Of a DNA stretch of 50,188 bases, positions 19,419-43,746 are shown in pieces; position 1 is the first letter of the stretch; every line of letters begins with the position of its first letter. A program made the translations under genes and the position numbers. Where the stretch lies: assembly GCA_040400605.1 (NCBI GenBank), contig JBBAPZ010000013.1, positions 1 to 50,188 on the forward strand, in the 5' to 3' direction. The notes below the pieces were generated by a model. That model had not been told where the DNA came from. It made no database searches and was given only the letters and a program-made list of their open reading frames with translations. This stretch comes from Candidatus Sericytochromatia bacterium. GTDB taxonomy: Bacteria; Cyanobacteriota; Sericytochromatia; S15B-MN24; JAQBPE01.

Positions 19419-21632
19419 TCACGCAGGTGATTGTCGGTCGATGCGAATGGTTTGTTGATTGGCGGGCCATGTCATTTGGTGGTAAACGGGTCTGCTTGGT
19501 TCTTTGGGGTCAGGAAGCGAGACCAGCGCTGTGGCTGGGTGTCTGATGGGTGTTGGGGTGGTGAGGCGGATGGCGTCTGGTAGGTGCTCGGTGTGGTAGG
19601 TGAATGGATAGCCTCCGAGCAGGGTGTGGCTGGTTGCAAGCAGATGGGGGTGTGGTTGCAGGGGGTGTCGAGAGAATAGGCAAACGCCGTGGGGGGGGAT
19701 GGTGTAGGATTGAGATGGTTGGTTGGGGTTGAAGGTGGTGGGACGGAACGGCCAGGATTCGATGAGGTGGTGCGGGTGGATGAAGGTTTTGAAATCCGGC
19801 CAGTCTGCGGGTGTGTAGTGCCAGGTGAGTGTGTGCTCGGACCAGTTGAAGCGGGCAAGGATGTCTGTTTGATGCGGCAGTTTCAGGTATAAGGCGTTTG
19901 GGAGTCCCTGGTGGGTGTCTTGCAGGGGCACTGCCGCTTTGGGTTGTTTGACGAGGGTACGTTGTAGCCAGTTGAGTCGTGTGGGGGGTACTTGGCTTAG
20001 GCGGTCGCTCACAAAGACATTGCCGCCAGACAGTGCAATGACCGTCAACATGGTTTGGATTTCGGCGTCGCTGAGTTCGTTGGTCAGGTTGGCGACGATG
20101 GCGCAGTCTGGATCGTTGATCCAGTACGTCCCGTTCATCCAATGACGGGCCAGTACACCGCGCATGGCATTGAGCGCTCCGGGTTCGCAGTCACTGGGTG
20201 GCTTGCTGTGCCAGTGGTGGGCGGTGTCGGAGCCCACCCGCATCGTGTCGACAAGTCCGACGCTGGCAAGCATTGGGGCGCCACATCCGCTAAGCGTGAC
20301 AGACGGCCCTGCGGCTTCGTTGATGTGACGCAGTCCGTTGCGGTAGGCTTGGATTGGGGTGATGGATGGGTCGTGTCGGCAGCCGTGGATGGCGCCGGCG
20401 TAGAGAAAGTCAAGTTTGAGGTAGCGATAGCCCCAAATTCGGGAGATGGTGTGAATGATGTGGCGCAGGTGGGCGATCGCTTCCGGGTGCGTGAGGTCGA
20501 GTGCGTAGGTGGGTTGATTGCCCCAGTGGGTGAAGTGGTTGATGGGTGTTCCCGTCGCGTCACGGAGGAGCCAATCCGGGTGGTGCTTGGCGAGTTGCGC
20601 GTGTGCTGAGACGCAAAATGGAGCCAGCCAGAGGCCTGGGGTGTGGTTTTTTTGGGTGATGGTTTGGGCGATCGCCGCGGGATGCCCGTCAAAACGTGCG
20701 TTGGGCGTGAGCCAGTCACCCACGGCTTGTTGGTAGCCATCGTCGAGTAGCACGACCTGCAAATCCAGGTTATTGTCCGCGTGGGTGAGATGTTCCAGAT
20801 TTTCGACGATGTCTTTGGCTTGGATGTTTTCGAAATAATGGTACCAGGAACACCATCCGAGTTGACGCTGCTTGGTTTTTTTGCCGCGCATAACAAAGCT
20901 GCTCAGTGCGGCATAGGCGTGTAACGCATCCGTTGCTTGGGCATCAATCAGGCACCAGGTATCGAGCCTGAGGCGTTGTCCGGGTCGCAATGATAAGGTG
21001 CCGAGTGGCTGGCTGGCGCTTAGATGTGCGTTTTGCGTCCAGTCCGGCGTCAGGCGGATCACCCCGGTGGCGGTATGTGCACTGATGAAACTCATCCATA
21101 ATTGTTGCGAATCCGTCTCAACTTCAAGGTAGTCTGGCTGCACAATCCCCATGTCTGTGCCCGTACTCCCCGGCGCACGCATCATCGCAGGGCGTGGCAG
21201 CGCTAGCTGATCCGCCAGCGCCATCTTTGGGGTTGCGGGACTCCAGGATTGATAACCACTTTGACGCAGTTGTCGTGGCACAGCGCTTTGTGGCCAGCGC
21301 GCCGCAAACAGGGTGCAACCCGCCACAGTCACACGGTGGGGACTTTGGTTCTGGATGTTCGCCCAACACAGCAAGGCCGGACCGCGCGTGTAGATGCGCC
21401 ACTGCACGCTGAGCCCCTCTGTCAATTGATTGATGGACCATAACCCGATTGGCCCGGTTGGGTGAGCCTTTTGTGTATCAAGGTGCAGCGTGCGGTCCCC
21501 AGCCAATGACAGGTGCACATCAAGGGTTTGCAGTAAGGGTTGGTGGTGTGCGTCGAGGATGACAAGTCCTTGTGGCGTCAGCTTGGGGGTGAAAGCGGGT
21601 GGCCCCGTAAGAATCTGCGCAAGGTGTTTCAT
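19419..21632 (-). CDS. Glycoside hydrolase family 36 alpha-galactosidase-like protein
   Basis: GWCSWY, LDDGYQ, PGLWLAPF, YLKLDF (nucleophile Asp), MRVGSD, NDPDC. Confidence 0.88.
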   Translation of the reverse strand: MKHLAQILTGPPAFTPKLTPQGLVILDAHHQPLLQTLDVHLSLAGDRTLHLDTQKAHPTGPIGLWSINQLTEGLSVQWRIYTRGPALLCWANIQNQSPHRVTVAGCTLFAARWPQSAVPRQLRQSGYQSWSPATPKMALADQLALPRPAMMRAPGSTGTDMGIVQPDYLEVETDSQQLWMSFISAHTATGVIRLTPDWTQNAHLSASQPLGTLSLRPGQRLRLDTWCLIDAQATDALHAYAALSSFVMRGKKTKQRQLGWCSWYHYFENIQAKDIVENLEHLTHADNNLDLQVVLLDDGYQQAVGDWLTPNARFDGHPAAIAQTITQKNHTPGLWLAPFCVSAHAQLAKHHPDWLLRDATGTPINHFTHWGNQPTYALDLTHPEAIAHLRHIIHTISRIWGYRYLKLDFLYAGAIHGCRHDPSITPIQAYRNGLRHINEAAGPSVTLSGCGAPMLASVGLVDTMRVGSDTAHHWHSKPPSDCEPGALNAMRGVLARHWMNGTYWINDPDCAIVANLTNELSDAEIQTMLTVIALSGGNVFVSDRLSQVPPTRLNWLQRTLVKQPKAAVPLQDTHQGLPNALYLKLPHQTDILARFNWSEHTLTWHYTPADWPDFKTFIHPHHLIESWPFRPTTFNPNQPSQSYTIPPHGVCLFSRHPLQPHPHLLATSHTLLGGYPFTYHTEHLPDAIRLTTPTPIRHPATALVSLPDPKEPSRPVYHQMTWPANQQTIRIDRQSPA

Positions 21633-21766
21633 GGCGCCCAGCGTATGGGGCGATGACGCGTTGCGACAAGTTGCGAGCAGTCCTAAAAGGACCGGTTGCG
21701 GGCGTGGGTGCGCAAAAGGTTCTATAATCTGTTGGGTGATGTTGGTTGAGAGTGAGACAGGATTGG

Positions 21767-22399
21767 ATGGCGGGCTTTTTGAGGGAATGTCGGCGTTGCT
21801 TGGCCACTGCGTGTCTGGTTTGGGCGGTCGCCACGCCGGAAGCCGATGCGCTGGCAGCTAAACCCGTTGGCTATTTGGAGCGGGGGCGCATGGAGTCGGT
21901 CGAAGGGGTTGTCACCTTTGTTTCAGACAGCGAAGCCGAGCTAACTGGTGGGCGTTATCTGCGCTTGCATGATGTGACCTCGCGGGTGTTCTATGGGGTA
22001 GGTGCCCACCCGGTTCTGGATCATTGGTGGCCCGCGTACTCGGCGAATGGCACGTTGTCAGATATCATTACCGTGTCTGCGGGCGGCTTGAGTTACTTGG
22101 AGCGCTACCAGACAGAGGCGCGTCAATCAGAGGGTTTTGCCCGTTTGGCTTGGTTGGGGCTTCTGGGCGGGACCGTCGGGCTTGCCGGTTCGTTGATTTA
22201 TAACGCGCTGCCCGGCAATACGCGGGAGGTGCAGCCGGCGTTGTTAATCGGTTCAGGCTTGCTGACGGCGCTTGGCGGGGTTGGGTTTGTGTCCGTCACG
22301 TTGGGCACGGCGACCCACGATGCGTTGCTGGATCAGGCGATCGCCGCGTACAACCGCGACTTGACGATCGTGCGCAACCGCCGCGGCACAGCCCGGTGA
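21767..22399 (+). CDS. Hypothetical exported/membrane protein
   Basis: Signal-like N-terminus and two Gly/Leu-rich TM segments near the C-terminus; start uncertain. Confidence 0.65.
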   Translation: MAGFLRECRRCLATACLVWAVATPEADALAAKPVGYLERGRMESVEGVVTFVSDSEAELTGGRYLRLHDVTSRVFYGVGAHPVLDHWWPAYSANGTLSDIITVSAGGLSYLERYQTEARQSEGFARLAWLGLLGGTVGLAGSLIYNALPGNTREVQPALLIGSGLLTALGGVGFVSVTLGTATHDALLDQAIAAYNRDLTIVRNRRGTAR

Positions 22400-22707: not shown

Positions 22708-24153
22708 TCAGGCACCTTGCAGACGCAGGTCGTAACGCAGGAAGGCAAGCCAGGCAGCGAGCATGGCCAACGCGCATAGAACCAGGAGTATGCCGATGTG
22801 TCTGAACGCTCGATTTAGGTCTGTTTTTGCGTACGCATTGCCGGGGTTAAACGGTGGCAATTCATTCCAGGTTGGGCGCGTGTCGATGCCAGTGATCAGC
22901 CTTTGCTCCGGCCAGCGTCGCAGTTCGCGCGCGTAGGCATCGACGGCGTCGATGAACGCGCGGTGTCGCGCACCGTCGGTGCCTGCCAGTTCTGCCGTCG
23001 CAAGCTGGTAGACAAGGGTCGGAGATAGCGCGGCCAGCGTTTGCAGTGAGTGTTCACGCGCCACGCGTATGGTTTTGTCGATTGCAGTGACGTGATCGAT
23101 TCTGGCAAAAAACTCGTCATAGTACGCCAGGCGAAGTCGCGCGGCATCGACACCTTTAGGTGTCGCTCCGAGATGCCCATTTTTGTAGGCTGTCACTTTC
23201 TTGCGATAGTTTACAAGCGATTGGGCGCGTAAGGCGGGTATTTTTTCTTCCAGTAGCGCTGAAGCGGTTACTGGATGCCGCGAGGCTGCTTCTGCAGCAA
23301 TTACCTTTGGAGCGGCCAGGGCCACCACGAGCCATAAACTGGCCAGTGCGACAACCGACGCGGCGCTTGAGCGGGCCATGGCGGAGACGGCGATGGATGC
23401 GGTGGTCCAGAACATCAGATAGGCCAAGCCAATCAACATAAACAGGACTGCACGCGTCAAACCATCCCACGATGCCGCGATGTTGCCTGTCGCGCCTAAA
23501 ACCGTAACCCCCAGCAGCAACGGTAACCACAATGTGCAGCAAACGACAGCGAAAACCCCCAGCAACTTGCCCAGCAAAAAAGTCCCGCGTCCGAGTGGGT
23601 TCGCAAAATGCAGTGCGAGGGTACCGCGTTCTTTTTCAGCCGAAATGCCATCGAAGCCAAGCGCAATGGTGAGCAATGCGCCCGCGACGCCGACCAATCC
23701 GGCGAGATCGAGGGTGCCGAAAAGGATACCAAGGGGCGTCAGTTCACCCTTGCGGCCCTCCAATTCACGTTGATGATAGTTTGCCGGCGCCGCCCACGTG
23801 CCAACGGCATCTGAAACGCCAGCGGCCAATGCGCGTCCTGGTGCTGGTGGAAGATGCCTGACAATTGGATGTTCAGCTGCGAGATCCACCGGACGCCAGG
23901 GGTCTGACCCATAGGCTGCGCGCCAGTCCGAAAATGCAACGATGACTGCTGCTTCCCCTGCATCATACGCTTGCCACTCCGCTTTGCATGCTGTCGCGCC
24001 GGACCAGGTGGCAAGGGCCACAAGCACTATCCAGAATATTGTGATCAGACGTCCCCGCCAGCCCGTGAGTGTCGTTTTCAGCACCCGGCTCGCGATGGTG
24101 ATTGCGAGGTTCAAGTGGGCTTGTGAGGAAGCGGAAGTGTAAAAATCGGTCAT
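22708..24153 (-). CDS. ABC-2 type transporter permease (DUF3526-like)
   Basis: GFDGISAEKERGTL motif, large extracytoplasmic loops, C-terminal FLRYDLR. Confidence 0.88.
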   Translation of the reverse strand: MTDFYTSASSQAHLNLAITIASRVLKTTLTGWRGRLITIFWIVLVALATWSGATACKAEWQAYDAGEAAVIVAFSDWRAAYGSDPWRPVDLAAEHPIVRHLPPAPGRALAAGVSDAVGTWAAPANYHQRELEGRKGELTPLGILFGTLDLAGLVGVAGALLTIALGFDGISAEKERGTLALHFANPLGRGTFLLGKLLGVFAVVCCTLWLPLLLGVTVLGATGNIAASWDGLTRAVLFMLIGLAYLMFWTTASIAVSAMARSSAASVVALASLWLVVALAAPKVIAAEAASRHPVTASALLEEKIPALRAQSLVNYRKKVTAYKNGHLGATPKGVDAARLRLAYYDEFFARIDHVTAIDKTIRVAREHSLQTLAALSPTLVYQLATAELAGTDGARHRAFIDAVDAYARELRRWPEQRLITGIDTRPTWNELPPFNPGNAYAKTDLNRAFRHIGILLVLCALAMLAAWLAFLRYDLRLQGA

Positions 24154-24160
24154 GCAGTGT

Positions 24161-25573
24161 TTATCTCAGATCATAGTGTTTGAAGCGAAAGAAACAGAGA
24201 AGCAGGATGATGAGCCACATACAGAGCATTGTCGCGACAGATGCACTTTGTTGTATCCAGATCCTTTGACTGGCCGTTTCCTTGAATTGAAACGGTGCGA
24301 CTGAGGGATAATCACTGAATTCGGCTATGCCGCGATCCTCAAGACGATTCAACCGTTCGAGAAACGCGCTGCGCCAGGCTGACGCTTGATTCAAAAATTC
24401 ATGGTGGCGTTGACCATCCGTGCCTGCGAATCCTGCGGCGATGCGAAAATAAAGACTTGTGGGCGAGATACAGCCAAACGCATCAAGTTTGGTAAGCTGA
24501 CGTTCCCGCCAATTGGCAATGGGTGCGTCTGCCTTGGCCTGCGCTCGTGCAGCCGCTGCGTCTATGATGTCCCGCACTGCAGCGGGTCCCTCAGTGGTGG
24601 TTATCGCGCCCGCCCCTTTCAGGCCACCGCTAGCCTTCAGTGTCTCGACCATCGCCTCTTGCTGGCGCCGCAGCCGGACTTCTTCGACGCGAATGGCCAT
24701 GCGAGCGGGAGAGGTTGCAGGTATAGGATCCCCAAGCTCCGCAATCGTCGCAACAGCACGAGGCGCAATGACCACCAGCGCGATCCATAAAACCACTGCT
24801 GCAAGGGTTGCTGAGGCGACGCGTGCGGAAAAAACGGAGCAGGCCGCACCAATCGTGATCCACACGGCCAGGTAGATTGCTGACAGGAACAAGAAACCAC
24901 CGAGTCGACCCATCACGTCGTTTGGCGCGCTACTGGCCATCCCCTCATACAACCCCGATGGTCCCAGCACAACACCGCCTGCAATCATCAAGGCCAGGCT
25001 GGCCGCCAGGGTAACTGCCACAAGGAAACCTGTCGTTCGACCGGCAATTTTTGCAAGCAACCAGCGATTTCTGCGCACAGGGTTTGCAAAGGTCAGACGA
25101 AGGGTACCCCGTTCCTTCTCCCCTGCGACGAGGTCTGAGCCGGCGAGCACAGCCAGCAACGACAGGATGACACCAATAACGAAAGCGGTATCAAGCGTGC
25201 CGATGGCCTGCGCGAATGGTGCATCGGCCGCGCTGGTGCCTTTGGCCGGAAGGAGTCGGTGGGCATCCGTTACAAGATGACCGGGAAGTATGCCGTCTGC
25301 ACCAGCAACCAGGCTCGCCAATGGCGCTGTCGGTTTGGCGAGCAAGACCGGAAAGTGGGCTGCGCCGTGCGGGTTTTGGGGTGGCTGAGCGAGCCAGGCT
25401 TGGCGGTTCTTTGCGGTTGACACCGCCACAGCACTGGCCGTTACTCCCACACGTTCGTTCCCCTGAGTGAACGCCACCACGAAAAACAGGCTTGCAACCG
25501 CTATCACGAGGCCCGCGCGCACGTCGCGAGTGGCTTGCAACAGCTCCAACCAAAAGATTGTGAAATATCTCAT
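24161..25573 (-). CDS. ABC-2 type transporter permease (DUF3526-like)
   Basis: QNPHGAAHF, GEKERGTLRL, paralogous to the neighbour, C-terminal FKHYDLR. Confidence 0.88.
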   Translation of the reverse strand: MRYFTIFWLELLQATRDVRAGLVIAVASLFFVVAFTQGNERVGVTASAVAVSTAKNRQAWLAQPPQNPHGAAHFPVLLAKPTAPLASLVAGADGILPGHLVTDAHRLLPAKGTSAADAPFAQAIGTLDTAFVIGVILSLLAVLAGSDLVAGEKERGTLRLTFANPVRRNRWLLAKIAGRTTGFLVAVTLAASLALMIAGGVVLGPSGLYEGMASSAPNDVMGRLGGFLFLSAIYLAVWITIGAACSVFSARVASATLAAVVLWIALVVIAPRAVATIAELGDPIPATSPARMAIRVEEVRLRRQQEAMVETLKASGGLKGAGAITTTEGPAAVRDIIDAAAARAQAKADAPIANWRERQLTKLDAFGCISPTSLYFRIAAGFAGTDGQRHHEFLNQASAWRSAFLERLNRLEDRGIAEFSDYPSVAPFQFKETASQRIWIQQSASVATMLCMWLIILLLCFFRFKHYDLR

Positions 25574-26286
25574 GCCGGTACCGATTTTCCAGCCATGGTT
25601 TCAACATATAGCTGTTCGAGATTCGCAACGCGGAGCGATTCGCCTTCGAGCTTCGCAACGAGACGTCCGCAACGCATGATACCAACCTTGTCCGCCAAAA
25701 CCCGCGCACGGAACAAATCGTGGGTGCTCATGAGGATTGCCTTGCCGTTGGCCTTCAGCGCAGCGATTGCTTGCTGCAACTCTGTAGCCGCGAGCGGATC
25801 GAGCCCAGAAAAGGGCTCATCGAGAAAAAGTGCTGATGCACCTTTGGCAAAGGCAATCGCAAGTCCGCATTTTTGCCTCATCCCCTTGGAGAGAAATCTC
25901 ACCTGTCGTTCGAATGCCTCCGTTGGAAGCCCCAAAGCCTCCAACGCGCCATATGCATCAGTCTTTGACAGCCGCCGACCGCTCAGCTCAACAAAATATT
26001 GCAGGTTTTCGCGCGCGGTTGCATGGCCGTATAGCATCACATTCTCCGCGACATATGCGACATGCCGCTTGGCCTCGACCGGGTTGGCCGCAACATCGAT
26101 TCCAACAACACGAGCCTCTCCGGCACTTGGCGGAACGAAGCCCAAGAACAGGTTGATGGTCGTACTTTTTCCGGCGCCGTTACCCCCGAACAACGCATAG
26201 ACCTCCCCTGGCTGGACGGTGAGGTCTAATCGATCCAGCGCGAGATGATCACCGTATCGCTTGGTTAAACCCACTGCCTCAATCAT
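25570..26286 (-). CDS. ABC transporter ATP-binding protein
   Basis: GGNGAGKST, LSKGMRQK, LFLDEP, STHD; GGAG 9 nt before ATG 26286. Confidence 0.95.
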   Translation of the reverse strand: MIEAVGLTKRYGDHLALDRLDLTVQPGEVYALFGGNGAGKSTTINLFLGFVPPSAGEARVVGIDVAANPVEAKRHVAYVAENVMLYGHATARENLQYFVELSGRRLSKTDAYGALEALGLPTEAFERQVRFLSKGMRQKCGLAIAFAKGASALFLDEPFSGLDPLAATELQQAIAALKANGKAILMSTHDLFRARVLADKVGIMRCGRLVAKLEGESLRVANLEQLYVETMAGKSVPA

Positions 26287-26326
26287 GGTGTCCATCTCCA
26301 GCTCAATCAAACCCGCAACCATACGC

Positions 26327-26383
26327 TTGACAGCATTAAGGTTATTAATGCAATAATGTAGCATTAGTGAATGGGTGTGGCAA
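26327..26383. promoter_or_regulatory. Divergent overlapping promoters covered by a Fur/Zur-like palindrome (26346-26366)
   Basis: Minus strand TTGCCA-17-TACATT with extended TG; plus strand TTGACA (26327-32), 19 nt, AATAAT; palindrome TAATGCAATAATGTAGCATTA. Confidence 0.7.
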
Positions 26384-26446
26384 GCATTGGGTCAGGTCGA
26401 GCGTTTCGTCTGAGCGTGCTTGTTGTTTAGGAGAGGGGATTTTTAA

Positions 26447-26584
26447 GTGAACAGATTGTTTGGCTGTGTTGCTCTGGCTGCGTTGGTGTTCGTTTCGTTC
26501 AGTGGCGCGGTTGAGGCACACGATGATTGTGGAGACCCGGATTGTAATCGTGGTGGCAAAGGCAAGATCGCAAGCATTAACTGA
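26447..26584 (+). CDS. Small secreted His/Asp/Cys peptide, 45 aa (absent from ORF track)
   Basis: MNRLFGCVALAALVFVSFSGAVEA/HDDCGDPDCNRGGKGKIASIN; SD AGGAGAGGGG 8 nt before GTG; Sec-type signal ending V-E-A; upstream promoter and downstream hairpin. Confidence 0.75.
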   Translation: MNRLFGCVALAALVFVSFSGAVEAHDDCGDPDCNRGGKGKIASIN

Positions 26585-26613
26585 TGCCTGCGGGCGTCTC
26601 CTAGGGAGCCTGT

Positions 26614-26653
26614 GGCTGCCTGTCATCAATGGCGATGACAGGCAGTTGTGTTT
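26614..26653 (+). terminator. Terminator-like hairpin after the small peptide gene
   Basis: 12-bp perfect stem CTGCCTGTCATC-AATGGC-GATGACAGGCAG then TTGTGTTT. Confidence 0.7.
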
Positions 26654-26657
26654 ATAA

Positions 26658-26774
26658 AGTGACGCAGCGGTTTTTGTTCAAGACTTGTCAAACAGACCCA
26701 AAACACCGGCACTGACTCGCTATTTTTGAACAGCAGCCAAAATTTGATCACCAGCCAACGCATTTCTGCATGGC
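26658..26774 (+). repeat. Dispersed degenerate intergenic repeat, copy 3
   Basis: AGTGACGCAGCGGTTTTTGTTCAA is identical over 24 nt to 37049-37072; internal TGTTCAA..TTGAACA inverted repeat. Confidence 0.8.
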
Positions 26775-26846
26775 TGGTGATTGTTTTGTGTATCAGCAAA
26801 TCTTGCCCTTCGGGGCTTTGAGCCCTGGATGGCAGGTCGTCGCAGC

Positions 26847-28034
26847 CTATAAGGATTCAAGGGCTGAATGGCTGTCCAGAATCCGCCACGCGGCGTGTTG
26901 CGCGCCAACGATGTTTCGCGCGATTGGTCCTATTTCGAGTTCAGCGAAGGGGCCCATGACTTGAATGCGTGGATGCCAGCGCAGTTCTGTATCCACGATG
27001 GGATAGCCACATGGTGCCAGCGGAAGCTCCTCGCGGGAAATGAACGCGTCGAGCCAGGTTGCGCCGGGGCGTCTGCCAGAAAAGCCGGTTGCCAACAGAA
27101 TCTGGTCAGCGCACAAGGTGGCGCCGTTTGCGCCTTGCAAGACGGCTTGGTCGCCAAATCGCGCGGCGGAGACAATGTCGGTGGTGACCCTTTGCAAGAT
27201 TCCTTGGCGTTCGGCAGTATCGATTGCTGTCAGTACATCTTCGGGTACGGAACCGGGCCGTCTTGCCTCACGAATGGCCTTGCGTCGCAAGATGGGATCG
27301 CGTAACTTTCGAAATGGAGCGAGCAGGCGTGGTGTTGACCATCCAGGATCGCTGTCTAACAGGTGTACCCGCGGTGCGTGGCGCAAAATCAAGGTTACCT
27401 TGCCGGGTCTTTGATTCGCCAGCGCGAGGGCGAGTTGATGGGCGCTTATGCCGCCGCCGATCACCACCAGGTGTTGCCAATCCCTGATTCCGTGACGTTG
27501 AAAATTCGGTTCAAAGACGTGTCGCACCGACACACCGCTTTCTCGCAGGGTTCTCGCCCACGCAGGCCAGACGCACGCCTCGCAACCGCCAGTGGCCAAA
27601 ACAACACGGCGCGCCGCGATGACCCCCGCTCTGGTCTCAACTTCGACGTGGTTGGTTTTTAGGCGCAAATCCTGAGCAGCATCCTGTATCCGCAGCTGTT
27701 GCAGGCCGTGCTTTTCGATCACACGACCCGCATGGGCTGAAAAAAGAGCCAAAGACGGTCTTCGGTATGGCTCCAGAAAGGCCTGCGATCGCAGGTCCGG
27801 CGTCTCGGACGCAAAATACTGCAAAGCCATCGGGTCCGTGTCCAAATGATAGGGAGCTGGCGATCGCAAATAACGCATGCCAACATTCAATGCACGCCGC
27901 GTCCAAGCTGCCAACGGTACCGGATGCGGATCAAGCACACGGACGCGGTCGCGACGTCTGCCCGCTTCACGTGTCAATTGCATTGAAAGATGAGTCCCGT
28001 GAATCCCACCGCCAATAATCAACCAATCCAACAT
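26847..28034 (-). CDS. FAD/NAD(P)-binding oxidoreductase, class B flavin monooxygenase (N-hydroxylase)-like
   Basis: Two Rossmann motifs IIGGGIHG and VIGGGISA; VLATGG and LLATGF motifs. Confidence 0.85.
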   Translation of the reverse strand: MLDWLIIGGGIHGTHLSMQLTREAGRRRDRVRVLDPHPVPLAAWTRRALNVGMRYLRSPAPYHLDTDPMALQYFASETPDLRSQAFLEPYRRPSLALFSAHAGRVIEKHGLQQLRIQDAAQDLRLKTNHVEVETRAGVIAARRVVLATGGCEACVWPAWARTLRESGVSVRHVFEPNFQRHGIRDWQHLVVIGGGISAHQLALALANQRPGKVTLILRHAPRVHLLDSDPGWSTPRLLAPFRKLRDPILRRKAIREARRPGSVPEDVLTAIDTAERQGILQRVTTDIVSAARFGDQAVLQGANGATLCADQILLATGFSGRRPGATWLDAFISREELPLAPCGYPIVDTELRWHPRIQVMGPFAELEIGPIARNIVGAQHAAWRILDSHSALESL

Positions 28035-28040
28035 AAGCGG

Positions 28041-29261
28041 CTATGCCACCACCGAAGAAGACGCCACTTGCCAATGCGGGATCGGGTCAGCAAACGCTGA
28101 CCACGCCGCTCGCCCAAGGGCCATTTCTTCATCGGTTAACAGACATGACTCGAGCATAGCGCGCAAACGGGCTTCATCCATGTTCGCGCCGATGATGGCA
28201 ATCTCCTGTCGGCGATCGCCATACGGCCCTTCAAAACTGGCCAGCATGGCCTGCCTGACACTCGCTTCCTCAGGCCACTCACTCTCCGGTACCGCTGACC
28301 AGAACAAGCCACCAGGCTGCAGTTGGCACGCACCCCCCGCCTGACTCCACAAACCGGCGTAATCCGGACGGGTGGCAAGCCAGAAGAAACCTTTCGAACG
28401 AATGACGCCCGTCCACTGCTCATTGAGTATCTCCCAAAATCTTGCCGGATGAAGTGGACGCCTGGCCCGCCAAACAAAAGAGCCAATACCGTAGGTATCA
28501 CTCTCCGGCACCTCTTCGCCGCGCAGCGCCGTCATCCACCCCGGCGCCGCCGCGGCTGCCTCGGGATCAAAACGCCTGGCATCAAGCAAGCGATCCAAAG
28601 GGACACGCCCCATACTCGCTGTCACAATCTCCGCACGCGGATTCAATGCCCGTAAAACAGCCTCCAGTTGTGAAAGATCCGCTGATGGGACCAAATCCGC
28701 CTTCGAAACAACCAGCAGGTCCGCGAATTCCACCTGGTCCACCAGCAAGTCAACAACCGTTCGCTCATCAGTATCATCAAGCGCCGCGCCACGCGCGTGC
28801 AAACTGTCAGCCGCCTCGTAATCAGCCAAAAATTGCGTGGCATCCACGACCGTCACCATCGTATCCAGCCTTGCGATATCAGATAGGGCGTTGCCATCAG
28901 CATCAGCGAATGAAAAAGTTTCAGCAACCGGCATCGGCTCCGATATACCAGTCGACTCGATCACCAGATAATCAAATCGACCCGACTCCGCCAGACGGCG
29001 CACCTCTTTCAGCAAATCCTCACGCAACGTACAGCAGATACAACCATTGGTCATTTCCACCAACCGCTCTTCAACACGCTCAAAGTGTATCTCCCGCGCG
29101 ATGAGCGCCGCATCGATGTTAACCTCGCTCATGTCATTGACAATCACCGCCACACGACGACCTTGCGTATTGGACAATATGTGCGTCAATAAGGTCGTCT
29201 TACCAGCACCTAAAAATCCCGACAAAACCGTTACCGGCAATTTATCTGTCGTATGTGTCAT
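28041..29261 (-). CDS. COG0523 (G3E) zinc metallochaperone GTPase, ZigA/YciC-like
   Basis: [14 protein letters not shown] (CxCC), ESTG, SKAD, Cob[11 protein letters not shown]. Confidence 0.95.
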
Positions 29262-29522
29262 ATTTGACTCCCCCTGCTGCCCTTAAAACAGCTGTCCGAA
29301 ACAATTCGGCCAGTTCAAACATTTGACCCGAATTCGCCACGCATTGGACTGAACTTCCTCCTGCATCGGTGAGCGACTCAAGCTTCCCGCATTTGCCCAA
29401 TCAACCATCAACACACGCTGGCTTGATGACCCATTACAGACTGGCTACCACGACGTATCCCCGACGCGTTCAGCACGCCCCCAACTTGACATGCCGACAA
29501 TGGCACAATCCCGCAGTGATAT

Positions 29523-29543
29523 TAATGCAATATTATTGCGTTT
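29523..29543. promoter_or_regulatory. Second Fur/Zur-like palindrome upstream of the COG0523 operon
   Basis: TAATGCAATATTATTGCGTTT; shares ATTAATGCAATA with 26344-26355; minus-strand TTTACA is adjacent. Confidence 0.7.
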
Positions 29544-29801
29544 GTGTAAAGGGGTGACACCTTTCGGAGGATTGGAAGTAGAAGTGCGCGCAAGGGGGCT
29601 TGGCAGGTTTTTTGGGGTCCAGTTTGTGTTGAAACGGCTTTGACGTTTTTTTGACCTTGGTTTCTGGTGCCGCTAGGGAGTAGGCACAATCGTTGGTCGT
29701 CAACCCGTTGGTTTTCTTAATGGGGATTCGTGTTCAGGGAGAGCGCTTGCCAGACCGCAACGTAAGATGCGTGGCGGGTTTGCTCTTTAGTGGATCGCTT
29801 T

Positions 29802-33237: not shown

Positions 33238-33768
33238 TGTGTGTGTCCGCCTGTTTTTGATCAAGGGCGCCTTACCAGAGTGCGATCGTGATAACATCCT
33301 TTGCTTTTGGTTTGGTCTAATCCTTTTTCATCGCCCGCCGGTTTTGTACCGGGTACGTCAAACGCGCGAGGGGCACTCTGAGTTGCTAGTACCATAACAA
33401 AGGTATCCTTTCTGTCTTTACATCGTTGCTACGAGCCTATCATCCGTGTCTTGCCCCGGGTTCTTATGTCAGGTTAGATTTACGATATGACTAATCTGGC
33501 ACGATAAACTTGATGGAAGGATGGCGCATCAATTGCAAACTGCGGGTTGAAGTGGCAAGGTTTCAGCGTGTCCGTGCTGTTTGCCATTCGAAATATGGTT
33601 CGTGTCGCTTGGTTCCATTCAGTTGCTTCTTGATAGCAAAAATGGCGTCGCCAGCGGCTGTACCGCGCGTGTGTCAATGCTGTGTCGGGTATTTGTATGG
33701 TGTGATACATCCCTGGTTGCCGGTCTGTGGTACCCTCAGCCGGTGGTGTTCAGTGCTAAACTGGGATG

Positions 33769-34164
33769 ATGGATTATGGCGCTGTCTTGAAATCCTTGCA
33801 GGCGGCTCTTCCGAACCTGCAGTCACTCTATGCCTTTGGCAGTCGGGTACGTGGGGATGCCACCGCTTCAAGTGACCTTGATCTGGCTGTATTGGTTGAA
33901 GGGTATGTGGAACCGACAACCGTGTTTGAACTTGCCGGGACGCTCGCGGACCTGGTCGGTTGTCCGGTTGACTTGCTTGATTTTCGCAGGGCCTCGACTA
34001 TCATGCAGCATCAGATTCTAACAACTGGCGTCTGCTGGTGGCGGAAAGACTTTCGCGTCGCTCTTTACGAAGCCGCCATCATGAGCGACAAAACGGAATT
34101 GGATGCTGCGCGGAGGGATCTGCTTTCAGACATTGCCAAAAGGGGCAGCATTTATGGCGGATGA
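33769..34164 (+). CDS. mntA: MNT nucleotidyltransferase antitoxin (MntA-type, type VII TA)
   Basis: FGS-x10-DLD motif (FGSRVRGDATASSDLD); overlaps the HEPN gene; ATG 33766 is an alternative start. Confidence 0.9.
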   Translation: MDYGAVLKSLQAALPNLQSLYAFGSRVRGDATASSDLDLAVLVEGYVEPTTVFELAGTLADLVGCPVDLLDFRRASTIMQHQILTTGVCWWRKDFRVALYEAAIMSDKTELDAARRDLLSDIAKRGSIYGG

Positions 34165-34585
34165 TGTCTTGCTCAATAAGGCGGCCAGCATCGAGCGCTG
34201 CATCAAGCGCGCGCGGGATGAGTATGCTTCGGAACCCGACACGTTTGTGCAGAGCCTGACCCGGCAGGATGCGGCGATCCTCAATATTCAACGTGCGTGC
34301 GAGGCTGCGCTGGATATGGGATGGCACCTGATCCGCCGCGAAAAACTGGGCCTGCCGCAAAGTGCCCGCGACGTCTTTGAGCTGCTGGCTCAATCCGGGT
34401 GGGTCACGCAGTCGTTGGCCGATAACCTCAAACGCATGGTGGGGTTTCGCAACATCGCCGTCCAGGATGATCAGGCGTTGCAGCTCCCCATTGTCGTCGC
34501 CATCATCACGCGCCATCTCGACGACTTTCTGCAGTTCACCCGCGGTATCTTACTGCGCGATTTGCACCCGGGTGAGCCCAAGTGA
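34154..34585 (+). CDS. hepT: HEPN/DUF86 toxin (HepT-type), catalytic motif mutated
   Basis: QDAAILNIQRACEAALD, PQSARD, MVGFRNIAVQDD versus canonical RNIAVHDY. Confidence 0.88.
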   Translation: MADDVLLNKAASIERCIKRARDEYASEPDTFVQSLTRQDAAILNIQRACEAALDMGWHLIRREKLGLPQSARDVFELLAQSGWVTQSLADNLKRMVGFRNIAVQDDQALQLPIVVAIITRHLDDFLQFTRGILLRDLHPGEPK

Positions 34586-39356: not shown

Positions 39357-40934
39357 ATGCGTCAAGCGCAGTCGTTGCTTCAGTTCAGGGAGGTTGACCC
39401 AGCCGTGGCAGACCATGTGGGTGTGGTGGATGTGGGTTCCAATTCGGTACGAATGGTTATTTACCGGGTGGATGCCTATGGAAACTGCCAAGAAGTTGAA
39501 AACGTGAAGCGCGTGTTGAGACTTGGGGGCCGTTTGACCCCGGAGGGGGATTTGCCCGCGGAGGCGATGGATGATCTTTATCAGGTGTTGCGCCAGTTTC
39601 GCCGGCTCGGCGATGCGTGGCAAGTGAGCGAGGCCATCGCTGTTGCCACGGCCGTGTTTCGCGAGGCACGCAATGGCGCCCAAGTCCTCGAGGGTGTCAG
39701 TGAGGCACTCGGGGTGCCCATTCGCTTGCTCAGTGGTCAGGAAGAGGCCATGTATGGGGTGTGGGGCGTCCAAGAGACGATGCCGTATCAGGATTGTCTG
39801 GTCGTGGATCTCGGTGGGGCCAGTGTCGAACTCACTGCCATTCGGGATAGCGAACCCCAACAATCCGTGAGCCTGCCAGTGGGTGCGCTGACGCTGACCC
39901 AGCGTTTTATGCAAGCCGAGTCGGACGGTCGTGGTTATGATGCCTTGTCCGCTTTTTTGAGCAACCTGTTTGCGAGTTACTTGTGGATCCAGGGTACGCC
40001 TGGACCATTGGTGGTGCTTGGCGGCACGGCACGCAGCGTGGCCAGGATGCGGCTCGGACGCGAGTTGACCAATTGGCTGGGCGTGCATCATCAGATGATC
40101 GGGCTACAGGAATTGCAGGATTTTACCTTGAGTGCCAATCGCATGACCCCTGCCACCCGTGCCGAGCAGTGGGGGCTGTCCATCGAGCGTTCGGAGCTTT
40201 TGATGGCTGGTCTGGCTGTGTTTGCCGCACTGATGGGCACGGATCGCGATCGCCTGGTGGTCTGTGGCGCAGGCTTGAGAGAAGGGTTGCTGTTTGAACG
40301 ACTTGCCACACGGCGTGGGCGCAGCATCCCGCAACGCATGGCGGCGAGTGCCGCGGAACGGCTCATCGCCCCTTTGCGCCCTGAAGCCACACACAGGTGC
40401 CACGTGCGGGACCTGGCCCTGGCTCTTTGGGAAAGCCTCGGGGAGCGCGTGGCATTGCCACCTCCGGCGTGGAGCCGCGATGTGCTCGAAGTGGCGGCCT
40501 TGTTGCGAGGCTTGGGCCTCGTGATTGGTGCACACGGTTTTGAAACCCATACGTTTCATTGGATTGCGCGGGTGCCGTTGGCTGGTCTAAGCGCCACGGA
40601 TCGATTGATTGCGGCGCTTGTCGCAGCCTATCGCACGCCACGAACCCTGCGTTTGCAGTCTCGGCCCTTTAAGACGCTGTTGCAATCCGTGCCGGGCGAG
40701 TGGTTGGAGCAGATGGGCAGTGTGTTGTTGTTGGCGGAGGGCTTGGATCGGACACGTCAGCAATTGATTCGCAGCGTGAGACTCGAGGGCGCCGGGCGTG
40801 ACTGGAAACTGTTGTGCAGCACGGGTGCGGCGGATTTGCTCGAACCGGCGTTGCTGACCGAAGTTCTGGAACGGTTTGAAAAAACGTTTAAGTGTCGCGT
40901 GCAAGTGACCTTGTTGTATGAGGAAGGCGAATGA
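39357..40934 (+). CDS. ppx: Ppx/GppA exopolyphosphatase
   Basis: DVGSNSVR, LSGQEEA, DLGGASVE, GLREG; AAGGAGG SD. Confidence 0.9.
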   Translation: MRQAQSLLQFREVDPAVADHVGVVDVGSNSVRMVIYRVDAYGNCQEVENVKRVLRLGGRLTPEGDLPAEAMDDLYQVLRQFRRLGDAWQVSEAIAVATAVFREARNGAQVLEGVSEALGVPIRLLSGQEEAMYGVWGVQETMPYQDCLVVDLGGASVELTAIRDSEPQQSVSLPVGALTLTQRFMQAESDGRGYDALSAFLSNLFASYLWIQGTPGPLVVLGGTARSVARMRLGRELTNWLGVHHQMIGLQELQDFTLSANRMTPATRAEQWGLSIERSELLMAGLAVFAALMGTDRDRLVVCGAGLREGLLFERLATRRGRSIPQRMAASAAERLIAPLRPEATHRCHVRDLALALWESLGERVALPPPAWSRDVLEVAALLRGLGLVIGAHGFETHTFHWIARVPLAGLSATDRLIAALVAAYRTPRTLRLQSRPFKTLLQSVPGEWLEQMGSVLLLAEGLDRTRQQLIRSVRLEGAGRDWKLLCSTGAADLLEPALLTEVLERFEKTFKCRVQVTLLYEEGE

Positions 40935-41548
40935 CCATACCTGAGACCCATATCTGGCTGGGGGATTGCGAACGGCTGTTGCTGAAGTACGGGGTGCACG
41001 GCGCGCACCCCAATAAAGTGGCGCGTTTGGCTGACCGGTTGTTTACTGCGATGCAGGTCATTCACGAACTGCCCGAATCGGAGCGCGCCCCGTTGGTGGC
41101 TGCTGCCTTGCTGCATGATCTGGGCCATGCCATCGATTCCGAACAGCATCATCGTCACAGCCGGTATCTGATTCGTCATGACCAAGGGCTTGCGCATTGG
41201 CCGGAGGCATTTCGTGAACGGGTGGCATTGCTTGCCCTTAACCATCGTCGGCCGATGGTTAAGGGCATCAAGGCGCTGAAGGGTGAGGAGCGCGATGCGG
41301 TACTCTCGCAGGTGGCCATGTTGCGCGTGGCTGATTGGTTGGATCGGCCACGCGACCACCGCGTCGAGGTTCACGACGTGCGGTTTGTTGCGGAGTCTGG
41401 TGCAATTGTTTTTGCGTTGGCGCGCATCCGTGCTGCGACCTTGCTTGATTGTGCGGATCGCAAAGCAGGGTTGGCTGCCACCCATTGGGATGCGACCCTA
41501 CAATTTGTGTGTGATGATCAAATTATCTTGGTGGAACCCCAGCGATGA
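40931..41548 (+). CDS. Stand-alone HD-domain protein resembling the Ppx C-terminal domain
   Basis: H..KVARLA, AALLHDLGH, HHRHSRY, LRVADWLD. Confidence 0.85.
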   Translation: MTIPETHIWLGDCERLLLKYGVHGAHPNKVARLADRLFTAMQVIHELPESERAPLVAAALLHDLGHAIDSEQHHRHSRYLIRHDQGLAHWPEAFRERVALLALNHRRPMVKGIKALKGEERDAVLSQVAMLRVADWLDRPRDHRVEVHDVRFVAESGAIVFALARIRAATLLDCADRKAGLAATHWDATLQFVCDDQIILVEPQR

Positions 41549-43746
41549 CCAATCAAGCCATGTCTGACACGTCCGACTTGCCCGTGAATCGGATGCCCTC
41601 CACCGCTCATTCACCGGATTACCTCGAGGAGGAATTGTCTTGGCTCGCCTTCAATGAACGCGTGCTCGAGGAGGTGATCGACCCCAGTAACCCTTTGCTG
41701 GAACAACTGAAGTTTGCCGCGATTGTGGCGTCTAACCTTGATGAGTTTTTCGCCGTGCGGGTTGCCAATTTGCGTGACCTGGCAAGGCCTGGCCACAAGC
41801 GTCGTGACAATTTGCCGCATGCTGCGTTTAACGAGCGTTACCACGCTGTGTCGACTCGGACGCACGAGCAGGTCGCGCGTCTGTATGACATTTTATGCAA
41901 CAACCTGTTGCCGAGGCTTGAGGCCGAGGGCATCAAATTTTGGCGGGCGCAGGATGTTCCGGCGGTTTACGAGGAGGCGATCGAAGCTGAGTTTTTAACG
42001 CATATACACCCGGTGCTGACACCCATGGCGGTGGATGCCGGTCGTCCTTTTCCCCTGTTGGCCCACAAGCGCCTGAATTTGGCCGTTATGCTCGAAAAGC
42101 CGGATGCACCTTCGGAGAAACGGCTCTTTGCGGTGGTGCAAGTGCCGCAGACCTTGCGCCGGGCGTTTACTTTGCGCAGTGATCCGGATGGGGATGAGTT
42201 TGTCTTGCTGGAATCCGTGATTGAACGTTACATTCACACGCTGTTTGCCGGTTATCGGGTGCTTGCGGTGGGTGCTTTTCGTATCACCCGCAAGAGCGAA
42301 TTGGCGGTGGATGAGTATGGTGCGAGCGATCTGTTGCAAGCGATTCAGGCGGAATTGAAAAAGCGTCGGAAGGGTGCGGCTGTGCGACTGGAAATCACGG
42401 CTGATCTCGCGCCTGAGCTGGAAGCATTTCTGACCCGTGCACTGGAGTTGGACCTTCGTGATATCTATCGCGTGCCGGGGCCATTGGATCCCACTTTTTT
42501 TATGGGGTTTGCTGCGATTGAGGGTTATGAAGACCTGCGTTACGAAGAACTGAAACCCAGTTTGCCGGTGGCGTTTGAGGGAGCATCCAGTATTTTCCAG
42601 GCGATCGCCCGGCGGGATATCTTGGTGCATCATCCCTATGAGTCCTTTGAATCGGTCTTGCACTTTATTCGTGAGGCGGCGGAGGATCCGGACGTCCTCG
42701 CGATCAAGCAGACCTTGTACCGTGTGAGCGGGCGATCGCCCGTTGTTGCGGCTTTGGCCCGTGCCGCAGAAATGGGCAAGCAGGTCACGGTGCTGGTGGA
42801 GATTAAGGCACGCTTCGATGAGGAGAACAATATCGCGTGGGCCAAACGCCTCGAAGAAGCCGGTTGCCACGTGATTTATGGCTTGGTGGGTCTTAAAACC
42901 CATAGCAAGATCACGCTGGTGGTGCGTCGTGAGGGCAATTACATTTCGCGTTACATGCATCTGTCGACAGGAAATTACAATGACCTGACGGCACGAATTT
43001 ACACGGATGTGGGGCTTTTTACGGCCAGTGCGGATGTGGGGGCGGATGCCACGGAGTTTTTCAACCATTTGTCAGGCTACACGGATGTTCCACGTTATCA
43101 GCGGTTGGTCGCGGCGCCTGAGCGCTTGCGTGATACCTTGTTGCAGTTGATAGCCGAGGAGATACGTCTCTCGACACCGGAGCGGCCGGGGCGCATTTGG
43201 GCGCAGATGAATGCCTTGACGGATCGCGCGTTGATCGATGCGTTGTATCAGGCGTCGGCTGCGGGGGTGCGGATTGAGTTGATCGTACGCGGGATGTGTT
43301 GCTTGCGTCCCGGGGTTCCTGGCAAGAGTGAGAACATTCGTGTCGTGAGCGTTGTGGGGCGTTTTTTGGAGCACAGCCGCATTTTTTACTTTGCCCAGGG
43401 TGGGGCTGACCGCGTGTTTATCTCCAGTGCGGATTGGATGCGCCGCAACATGGATGGTCGCGTAGAGTTGTTGGTGCCGATCCAACAGGCGGATTTGTGC
43501 AGACGCCTTCGCCGCATCTTGGAGATACAGCTCCAGGATACAGTCAAGTCGCGGGTGCTGATGCCGAATGGGGAATATGCCCGCCAGGTTGTTCTCGATG
43601 AGGCGCGCTTTCACGGTCAGGCGTGGTTGCTGATGGAATCGTTGGCCCATGAGGACGAGACCGTTGAAATCACGTCATTGGTGCCGGAGGCGGCGCGTGA
43701 TGGGGGTAATCAGGCAGCGTCAGCGCAAATGGGGACGGATGAATGA
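41545..43746 (+). CDS. ppk1: Polyphosphate kinase 1
   Basis: ELSWLAFNERVL, NLDEFF, HHPYESF, IKQTLYR, GRFLEHSR. Confidence 0.97.
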   Translation: MTNQAMSDTSDLPVNRMPSTAHSPDYLEEELSWLAFNERVLEEVIDPSNPLLEQLKFAAIVASNLDEFFAVRVANLRDLARPGHKRRDNLPHAAFNERYHAVSTRTHEQVARLYDILCNNLLPRLEAEGIKFWRAQDVPAVYEEAIEAEFLTHIHPVLTPMAVDAGRPFPLLAHKRLNLAVMLEKPDAPSEKRLFAVVQVPQTLRRAFTLRSDPDGDEFVLLESVIERYIHTLFAGYRVLAVGAFRITRKSELAVDEYGASDLLQAIQAELKKRRKGAAVRLEITADLAPELEAFLTRALELDLRDIYRVPGPLDPTFFMGFAAIEGYEDLRYEELKPSLPVAFEGASSIFQAIARRDILVHHPYESFESVLHFIREAAEDPDVLAIKQTLYRVSGRSPVVAALARAAEMGKQVTVLVEIKARFDEENNIAWAKRLEEAGCHVIYGLVGLKTHSKITLVVRREGNYISRYMHLSTGNYNDLTARIYTDVGLFTASADVGADATEFFNHLSGYTDVPRYQRLVAAPERLRDTLLQLIAEEIRLSTPERPGRIWAQMNALTDRALIDALYQASAAGVRIELIVRGMCCLRPGVPGKSENIRVVSVVGRFLEHSRIFYFAQGGADRVFISSADWMRRNMDGRVELLVPIQQADLCRRLRRILEIQLQDTVKSRVLMPNGEYARQVVLDEARFHGQAWLLMESLAHEDETVEITSLVPEAARDGGNQAASAQMGTDE

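Follow-up and report, generated by a model that had tools for sequence, protein, structure and literature searches.

A recurrent, predicted exported Cys/His peptide beside a binding-protein-less DUF3526 ABC-2 transporter in Candidatus Sericytochromatia: a possible partnership in zinc uptake

Introduction

Among described zinc systems, the closest to the locus considered here is znuGHI of Caulobacter crescentus (CC1518-1520), presented in the text of Mazzon et al. 2014 (PMC4176598) as an ATP-binding cassette (ABC) ATPase of the ABC-2 type with two permeases, Zur-repressed and divergent from the TonB receptor gene znuK. DUF3526 ABC-2 systems are found in Proteobacteria, Bacteroidota and Acidobacteriota; they have no binding protein and an exporter-type fold, and since 2014 they have gone under the name of zinc importers with neither ligand nor mechanism assigned. 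Ribosomally encoded metallophores are known in the form of bufferins, which, according to the text of PMC11626156, need enzymes of the multinuclear non-heme iron-dependent oxidase (MNIO)/DUF2063 family to make thiooxazoles and protect against copper excess. Here, a locus is described from a 50,188-nucleotide (nt) stretch of a Candidatus Sericytochromatia genome (contig JBBAPZ010000013.1, positions 1 to 50,188; hereafter, the window), in which a ZnuGHI-like operon stands beside a gene for a small, predicted exported Cys/His peptide that may act as its zinc ligand. The genome holding the window is designated G000, and other G numbers denote relatives in Ca. Sericytochromatia, a class of uncultured bacteria related to cyanobacteria but non-photosynthetic.

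Results

A small, predicted exported peptide tracks the ABC-2 transporter

The peptide is encoded by a 45-amino-acid (aa) open reading frame (ORF) with a GTG start at 26447..26584 on the forward strand, preceded by a Shine-Dalgarno-like GGAG. It has a predicted Sec signal peptide, called here and throughout by a script heuristic rather than by SignalP, and a mature part of ~21 residues with an H-D-D-C-x-D-P-D-C motif. The ORF is convergent with a flavoprotein gene and divergent from a reverse-strand operon of one ATPase (ZnuG-like, 25570..26286) and two tandem permeases that match PF12679 and PF12040 (DUF3526): permease A (ZnuH-like, 470 aa, 24161..25573) and permease B (ZnuI-like, 481 aa, 22708..24153). 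No binding protein is encoded in the operon. These assignments come from family scans and, for the ATPase, also from comparison with relatives; its start was shifted from 26364 to 26286 on the basis of the relatives' starts and the ribosome-binding site. The resulting protein, 238 aa from the ATG at 26286, is 70% identical to the ATPase of G011 beginning at the first residue. By ORF calls and family scans, all genes of the locus are present, as are both palindromes discussed below.

PF12040 is present in 16/47 genomes of class Sericytochromatia, and no match turned up in the 354 other genomes of the phylum that were searched. From the loci themselves and with profiles run over all 47 class genomes, the peptide was found in 15/16 PF12040-positive genomes and in 1/31 negative ones, its presence or absence thus tracking the ABC genes in 45/47; a Fisher test of this association is descriptive only, because kin genomes are not independent. 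The peptide ORF is at the transporter locus in 14/16 genomes. Eleven peptides, from six genera, lie 72-264 nt from the ATPase start, and ten of these are divergent, the position held by znuK in Caulobacter. In four genera, members that do not have the ABC genes also do not have the peptide (G009; G013 and G026; G028; G039). Searches of ABC-negative genomes and G003 with peptide DNA patterns gave 0/5, and a further pattern search gave chance-level matches. None of 12 loci from other phyla carries such a peptide, and a looser ORF scan of six of these loci returned only longer, leader-like ORFs.

These counts could also be read as independent membership of the Zur regulon, with peptide and transporter merely sharing operators and islands and the peptide acting as a periplasmic zinc buffer or store. 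Such an arrangement would suit the peptides of G002, G011 and G023, which lie 1.5-8.4 kb from the ATPase among the other genes of zinc islands (that of G002 heads an operon with L33, DUF1826, S18 and the ABC genes), as well as the genomes with a single partner (peptide in G006, ABC in G003) and the extra peptide copies away from the ABC genes in G044 and G046. However, ZigA, ZIP, ZnuA and L33 do not track the ABC genes, whereas the peptide does so across the class and in the four within-genus contrasts, and 30 ABC-negative genomes gave no peptide match though most have ZnuA. Independent membership is thus considered unlikely.

Across the class, the peptides are 42-94 aa ORFs whose N-terminus is hydrophobic and whose Cys-rich tail bears Cys/His/Asp motifs. 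All of them contain Cys together with His and acidic residues, in many cases arranged in 2-8 repeats. Peptides of the C-x-D-P-[DE]-C type are found in G000, G002, G011 (three repeats) and G023, and H-x-C repeat peptides (HPCP, HECP, HDCD; two to eight copies) in G029, G031-G036, G038, G044 and G045. In a FastTree tree of 28 rows with a weak backbone (G029, G031, G033, G034 and G045 left out), each motif type goes with a permease clade of its own, and a TonB-linked Blastocatellia protein falls within one of these two separate clades. The pairing is therefore either old or arose twice. In G000, only 3 of 70 small signal-peptide ORFs have the Cys/His/acidic make-up of the peptide, and CxDP[DE]C, with its second position relaxed to fit the window peptide, occurs once in 86,550 six-frame segments, in the window peptide ORF.

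The peptides match no Pfam or NCBIfam family. When the window peptide alone served as the query, no relative was returned (best Atlas score, 0.75), and a pooled peptide profile retrieved 5 proteins among 8000 candidates, all resembling the input. The window peptide matches its relatives' peptides in position, size, signal peptide and CxDP[DE]C motif, and was assigned to the class set by position, architecture and motif; profile searches do not retrieve it. Contigs of one metatranscriptome cover the peptide ORF (26442-26599, no differences), the flavoprotein gene and zigA, with none over the ABC genes, and were not used as expression evidence. The peptide is predicted to be Sec-exported and is likely unmodified. 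No MNIO enzyme (PF05114) is found in G000, G002, G011 or G023, the genomes with a window-type peptide; in family f6, such an enzyme is present in 13/13 genomes, with or without the peptide, and there is no co-variation.

Further peptides of the H-x-C repeat type lie away from ABC genes at L230:8830-9075, L231:2380-2586 and G044:C507:5488-5655, and one of them adjoins a gene resembling the DUF1007 gene of L032. In G031, G032 and G045, a 200-aa protein without a Pfam family is encoded between the peptide gene and zigA (L032:10781-11380, L149:10712-11341, L228:5162-5755). In G003, a 514-aa exported Pro-rich protein, also without a Pfam family, is encoded between the operator box and the ATPase gene (L023:6697-8241).

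The operator and its zinc regulon

The initial annotation had reported two near-identical palindromes, and both are present. By pattern and matrix, operator 1 lies between the divergent ATPase and peptide genes (26345..26367, match 26347-26365), and operator 2 lies 263 nt upstream of zigA (29522..29544, match 29524-29542). Both overlap predicted -10 elements. The pattern has 2 matches in the window against 0.01 expected; since it was taken from those same two sites, the stronger evidence comes from genome-wide searches. Five G000 sites are within 3 mismatches of the palindrome consensus. A weight matrix ranks six G000 sites at 25-37, with the next site at 16; this matrix was built from 18 sites of relatives chosen with the window consensus, which makes it partly circular for the two window sites. 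Of the four top sites outside the window, one lies before a COG0523-WD40-NicO unit, one before genes for an exported protein and ZnuA, one before a ZIP-like gene and one before a Cys-free L33 gene that a ZIP gene follows. Unlike the box-linked Cys-free L33, the housekeeping L33 copy of G000 retains its Cys pairs. Cys-free ribosomal paralogues, COG0523 and ZnuA make up the standard Zur regulon as outlined in PMC6103462. Because the sites in G000 head a Cys-free ribosomal paralogue, COG0523 and ZnuA, the palindrome is likely a Zur operator, and Zur would be the regulator that binds it. The zinc-starvation control that the initial annotation had proposed thus gains support from the regulon.

With a matrix built from the six G000 sites, a box was found upstream of the peptide or ATPase gene in 12/16 regions, representing 10/14 relatives, with scores that no more than 10 of 200 shuffles attained. 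Next to the ABC operon, G003 and G011 carry a Fur-family gene whose G000 orthologue is 76% identical; a Fur-family protein is encoded in G000 at C17:4166-4612. Gene orientation and promoter-like matches suggest three transcription units in the window locus. No ZnuA, nonribosomal peptide synthetase (NRPS) or NRPS-independent siderophore (NIS) synthetase family was found among 17 ORFs scanned around the locus, as the initial annotation had stated, but the genome has 2 ZnuA-family genes elsewhere, one of them behind the same palindrome (C23:33384). With two ZnuA genes and ZIPs in G000, a peptide-ABC system would therefore be an additional route.

Several other features of the zinc islands were recorded. 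A second island of G000 (C17:47002-53717, L001) has two boxes and encodes a His-rich-type COG0523 protein, WD40, NicO, Cys-free L28, Cys-free L33 and ZIP. At C23:33384-36567 (L002), a box is followed by a gene for a 441-aa exported protein that matches no Pfam family, then by a ZnuA-family gene and an ORF whose lipoprotein-like product contains a His/Cys stretch. Two conserved 80-90 aa ORFs (L023:12291-12809, L024:7352-7827), one with a CxC motif, adjoin the Fur-family gene in G003/G011. Treble-clef zinc finger (zf_Tbcl) proteins recur in the islands (L155:5589-6074, with similar ORFs in L001, L024, L025 and L154), one of them as a fusion with a cold-shock domain. The idea that the zigA leader contains a decayed ribosomal-protein gene is not supported.

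The transporter and its predicted metal site

Among 14 control genomes, PF12040 has a match in Caulobacter only, and no ZnuA match was found in that Caulobacter genome. From these two results, we infer that the window operon is a ZnuGHI-type system, an assignment made by family content rather than by alignment of CC1519/1520 themselves. The same DUF3526 operon occurs in the 11 plasmid records compared, out of 13 retrieved, and in one Blastocatellia contig. A TonB receptor was found at 11/12 loci of other phyla and at 0/16 Sericytochromatia loci, using receptor queries of which seven were taken from the other-phyla loci themselves and with receptors confirmed by annotation or Pfam. In G000, 4 TonB receptor genes are on other contigs, none of them among the six top operator sites. 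A search for related loci with permease A alone gave no match, and a metagenome scan was of no use: apart from the window itself, it retrieved a single full-length locus, a distant one, along with 78 matches that were short and partial.

In permease A, residues H69, H73, D/E103 and H105 are kept in 22/22 aligned sequences (17-63% identity), and the motif is also seen in 5/6 TonB-linked homologues from other phyla. This His/acid set sits in the loop after the first membrane segment, with none in the membrane segments, and is likely a periplasmic metal site, as predicted from conservation and topology. Permease B has at least six hydrophobic segments, and a single His, H327, is invariant (11/11 sequences). 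The predicted model of permease A has a pLDDT (predicted local distance difference test) of 86.9.

The nearest solved fold raises the question of whether zinc would cross the membrane at all. NosY is the sole significant PDB sequence match of permease A (E 1e-15), and all 9 Foldseek matches of the model with E <= 0.001 are NosY chains. In the account given in PMC13685413, NosDFY passes copper from NosL to N2O reductase in the periplasm. By analogy, the complex could be a NosFY-like ATP-driven motor that moves no zinc across the membrane and instead loads or unloads the peptide so that zinc proteins of the periplasm or outer membrane are supplied, and the placement of the conserved His set in the predicted periplasmic loop would agree with this. 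Yet the likeness is limited to the membrane core (TM-score 0.28-0.35 over query, 0.47-0.61 over target), no NosD-like or client gene recurs at the loci, and control by a zinc-starvation regulator fits cytoplasmic supply. No nosD, nosL or nosZ family was found among the ORFs scanned around the window locus. A NosFY-like motor is regarded as doubtful.

Permease A also has weak similarity to the exporters PmtD and ABCG (E 0.5 by PDB sequence search; E >= 0.03 by Foldseek), which would fit a role of the complex in exporting the peptide, or a complex of peptide and metal, or in clearing it from the membrane or periplasm. The metal could then be copper or cobalt, and Cys/His peptides also bind Cu(I). 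Such a role is quite improbable, given that the peptide has its own predicted signal peptide, that the same transporter family stands beside TonB importers in other phyla and that the regulon of the operator is a zinc-starvation set.

The ZigA GTPase and its flavoprotein neighbor

On the reverse strand, upstream of the flavoprotein gene, a ZigA-type COG0523 zinc metallochaperone GTPase is encoded at 28041..29261. It scores 622 bits against NF038288 (ZigA; cut-off, 600) and has a CxCC at 74 and Walker A, ESTG and SKxD motifs, as expected from its initial annotation as a COG0523 GTPase of ZigA type. A ZigA-like gene is present in the locus region of 6/16 ABC genomes. The flavoprotein gene (26847..28034, reverse strand) begins 6 nt behind zigA and, by family scan, encodes a FAD/NAD(P)-binding protein (PF13454/PF07992) with GxGxxG at 8, GxGxSA at 193 and ATG motifs at 144 and 312, which are FAD and NAD(P)H motifs. 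The initial annotation had taken this protein for a class B flavin monooxygenase (FMO). Its dinucleotide-binding and ATG motifs are indeed present, but the FMO fingerprint FxGxxxHxxx[YF] was not found in the protein and family cut-offs are not reached (PF13434, 21.2 versus 21.3; ArsO, 24 versus 425). No PDB sequence match was found for the flavoprotein.

The flavoprotein was found in 4/41 class genomes, always directly behind zigA: in G000 and G002, which are 2/12 of the peptide+ABC genomes of the set, and in G006 and G007, which do not have the ABC genes. Homologues occur in Bacillaceae, haloarchaea and cyanobacteria (L237, L238, L240, L241), with no ABC-2 genes in these regions. A COG0523-like GTP-binding gene is near in 3/5 homologue regions compared (21 records found), two of these with S14; of the other regions, one is beside hemB and folE and one, from S. 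aureus, has no zinc context. A flavoprotein partner is not mentioned in the main-text passages of Haas et al. 2009 (PMC2770081) that were searched; Additional file 3 of that paper may list it among COG0523 neighbors. Judging by this distribution, the flavoprotein is an uncharacterised companion of zinc limitation and not a dedicated peptide-modifying enzyme; it forms a separate module with ZigA and is no part of the peptide-ABC pairing.

This result bears on the central proposal of the initial annotation, a four-part system in which the flavoprotein modifies a ribosomally synthesized and post-translationally modified peptide (RiPP) metallophore, which the ABC-2 complex handles and which is then passed on to the GTPase. 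The four genes are contiguous in G000 and probably form one island in G002, where contigs end, and Sec-exported RiPP metallophores do exist in the form of bufferins (PMC11626156). However, in addition to the scarcity of the flavoprotein among peptide+ABC genomes and its occurrence where ABC-2 genes are missing, no modifying-enzyme family recurs at the loci and MNIO enzymes do not co-vary with the peptide. A flavoprotein-modified peptide is the least probable of the explanations considered, and the four-part system is not upheld. Of the co-occurrence that the annotation had named as its check, the peptide-ABC half is borne out (15/16) and the flavoprotein half is not (2/12). The small secreted-peptide ORF it had proposed proves to be real and a recurring partner of the DUF3526 ABC-2 system in the class; its description of the system as new fails for the ABC module, which is already known as Caulobacter ZnuGHI.

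Other features of the window

A terminator-like hairpin (26645..26668, forward strand; consensus match only) lies between the convergent peptide and flavoprotein genes. The permease genes are flanked by a melibiase-family glycosidase gene (19419-21632, reverse strand) and by a divergent 217-aa ORF without a family (21746-22399, forward strand), which has no match in the 15 relatives' loci compared. Farther away are a nucleotidyltransferase and HepT-like gene pair, likely an MNT-HEPN toxin-antitoxin module (33766-34585), and a row of genes for Ppx/GppA, an HD-domain protein, polyphosphate kinase and PEP carboxylase (39357-46601).

Discussion

The favored explanation, to which a probability of roughly 0.45 is given, is that an unmodified, exported zinc-binding peptide serves the binding-protein-less ABC-2 transporter for uptake. 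Because its gene adjoins an ABC operon without a binding protein and is preceded by what is likely a zinc-starvation operator, the peptide probably serves to capture zinc. Under zinc shortage, Zur would leave the shared operator, and the peptide would be Sec-exported and cleaved after an AxA-type site. Outside the inner membrane, it would bind Zn(II) via its two Cys plus His and Asp residues, the H-x-C pairs of the other motif type giving Cys2His2 coordination. It may then be unloaded at the His site of permease A, with ATP-driven zinc uptake by the DUF3526 ZnuGHI-type complex. Export, cleavage, zinc binding, docking at the permease and inward transport are thus all proposed steps. ZigA and the flavoprotein would constitute an independent cytoplasmic zinc-limitation cassette, likely Zur-repressed. 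A broader proposal, slightly less probable than that for the window, is that across the class an unmodified 20-70 residue Cys/His repeat peptide replaces both binding protein and TonB receptor, such that an exporter-fold ABC complex unloads the peptide and works as an importer.

A number of observations weigh against uptake by a peptide-fed transporter. ABC-2 folds are mostly exporters, and Cys pairs in the periplasm may form disulfides rather than bind metal. G003 (91% complete) has the ABC genes with no peptide found; G006 (87% complete) keeps the peptide, the ABC genes being missing from the locus that matches that of G002; and G044 and G046 have peptide copies on other contigs (the G046 contig ends before the ATPase gene, with two copies elsewhere in the genome). 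By matrix scan, 4/14 relatives (G029, G036, G038 and G044) have no box. G000 also has ZnuA and ZIP routes. The window peptide is the most divergent of the set, being missed by a leave-one-out profile (not in the top 15 of G000) and by pooled profile A6. Five of the adjacent peptide-ATPase cases come from one genus. The profiles and motifs were built from ABC-adjacent peptides, so they would overlook peptides that carry different motifs, whether in ABC-negative genomes or in other phyla; profile A3 missed the peptide of G031. NosFY, the nearest solved relative of permease A, is not a solute importer as described in PMC13685413, and the mutants described in the part of PMC4176598 consulted are receptor mutants, with znuGHI not among them.

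If uptake through the peptide is correct, the peptide would be the first ligand for the widespread ZnuGHI/DUF3526 family, and an unmodified ribosomal zincophore would join the known small-molecule, RiPP and protein types. A short, synthesizable peptide that tracks the transporter class-wide, and takes the place that a TonB receptor has elsewhere, makes metal binding, docking and ATPase stimulation directly testable on a peptide of 20-50 residues. A literature search whose coverage left out subscription journals and supplements returned no report of the peptide-transporter pair or of the flavoprotein.

In comparison with known systems, the locus shares with Caulobacter ZnuGHI/ZnuK (PMC4176598) an ABC-2 ATPase with two permeases, no binding protein and an operator over a -10 element in common with a divergent gene. 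In contrast, the divergent gene here encodes a 45-aa, predicted exported peptide and not a TonB receptor, and none of the 16 class loci has a receptor. NosDFY (type V ABC complex, PDB ID: 7O0Y and related entries) provides the nearest solved fold of permease A, and the metal it handles is likewise brought by a small exported protein, NosL. However, NosY is a homodimer of ~275 aa that works with NosD to supply copper to one enzyme, whereas the present system has two permeases that differ from each other, each of 470-480 aa and with large loops, and it has zinc-type regulation and no NosD. Like the bufferins, as described in the text of Leprevost et al. 2024 (PMC11626156), the peptides are small Cys-containing precursors with Sec signal peptides, here heuristically predicted; unlike them, they have no MNIO enzyme in four genomes, belong to no Pfam/NCBIfam family, are under starvation-type control and have a linked transporter. 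ZepA of Anabaena, from the same phylum, is also a Zur-controlled secreted product and mediates zinc uptake (a role proposed for the peptide here), but from the text of PMC10957091 it is a folded exoprotein with a proposed need for an outer-membrane receptor, in contrast to a repeat peptide of 20-60 residues tied to an ABC-2 complex. The GTPase at 28041-29261 is a plain member of the ZigA/YciC COG0523 GTPases (NF038288). The transporter and the GTPase are therefore of known kinds, and what is new is the recurring, predicted exported peptide in the place of the TonB receptor.

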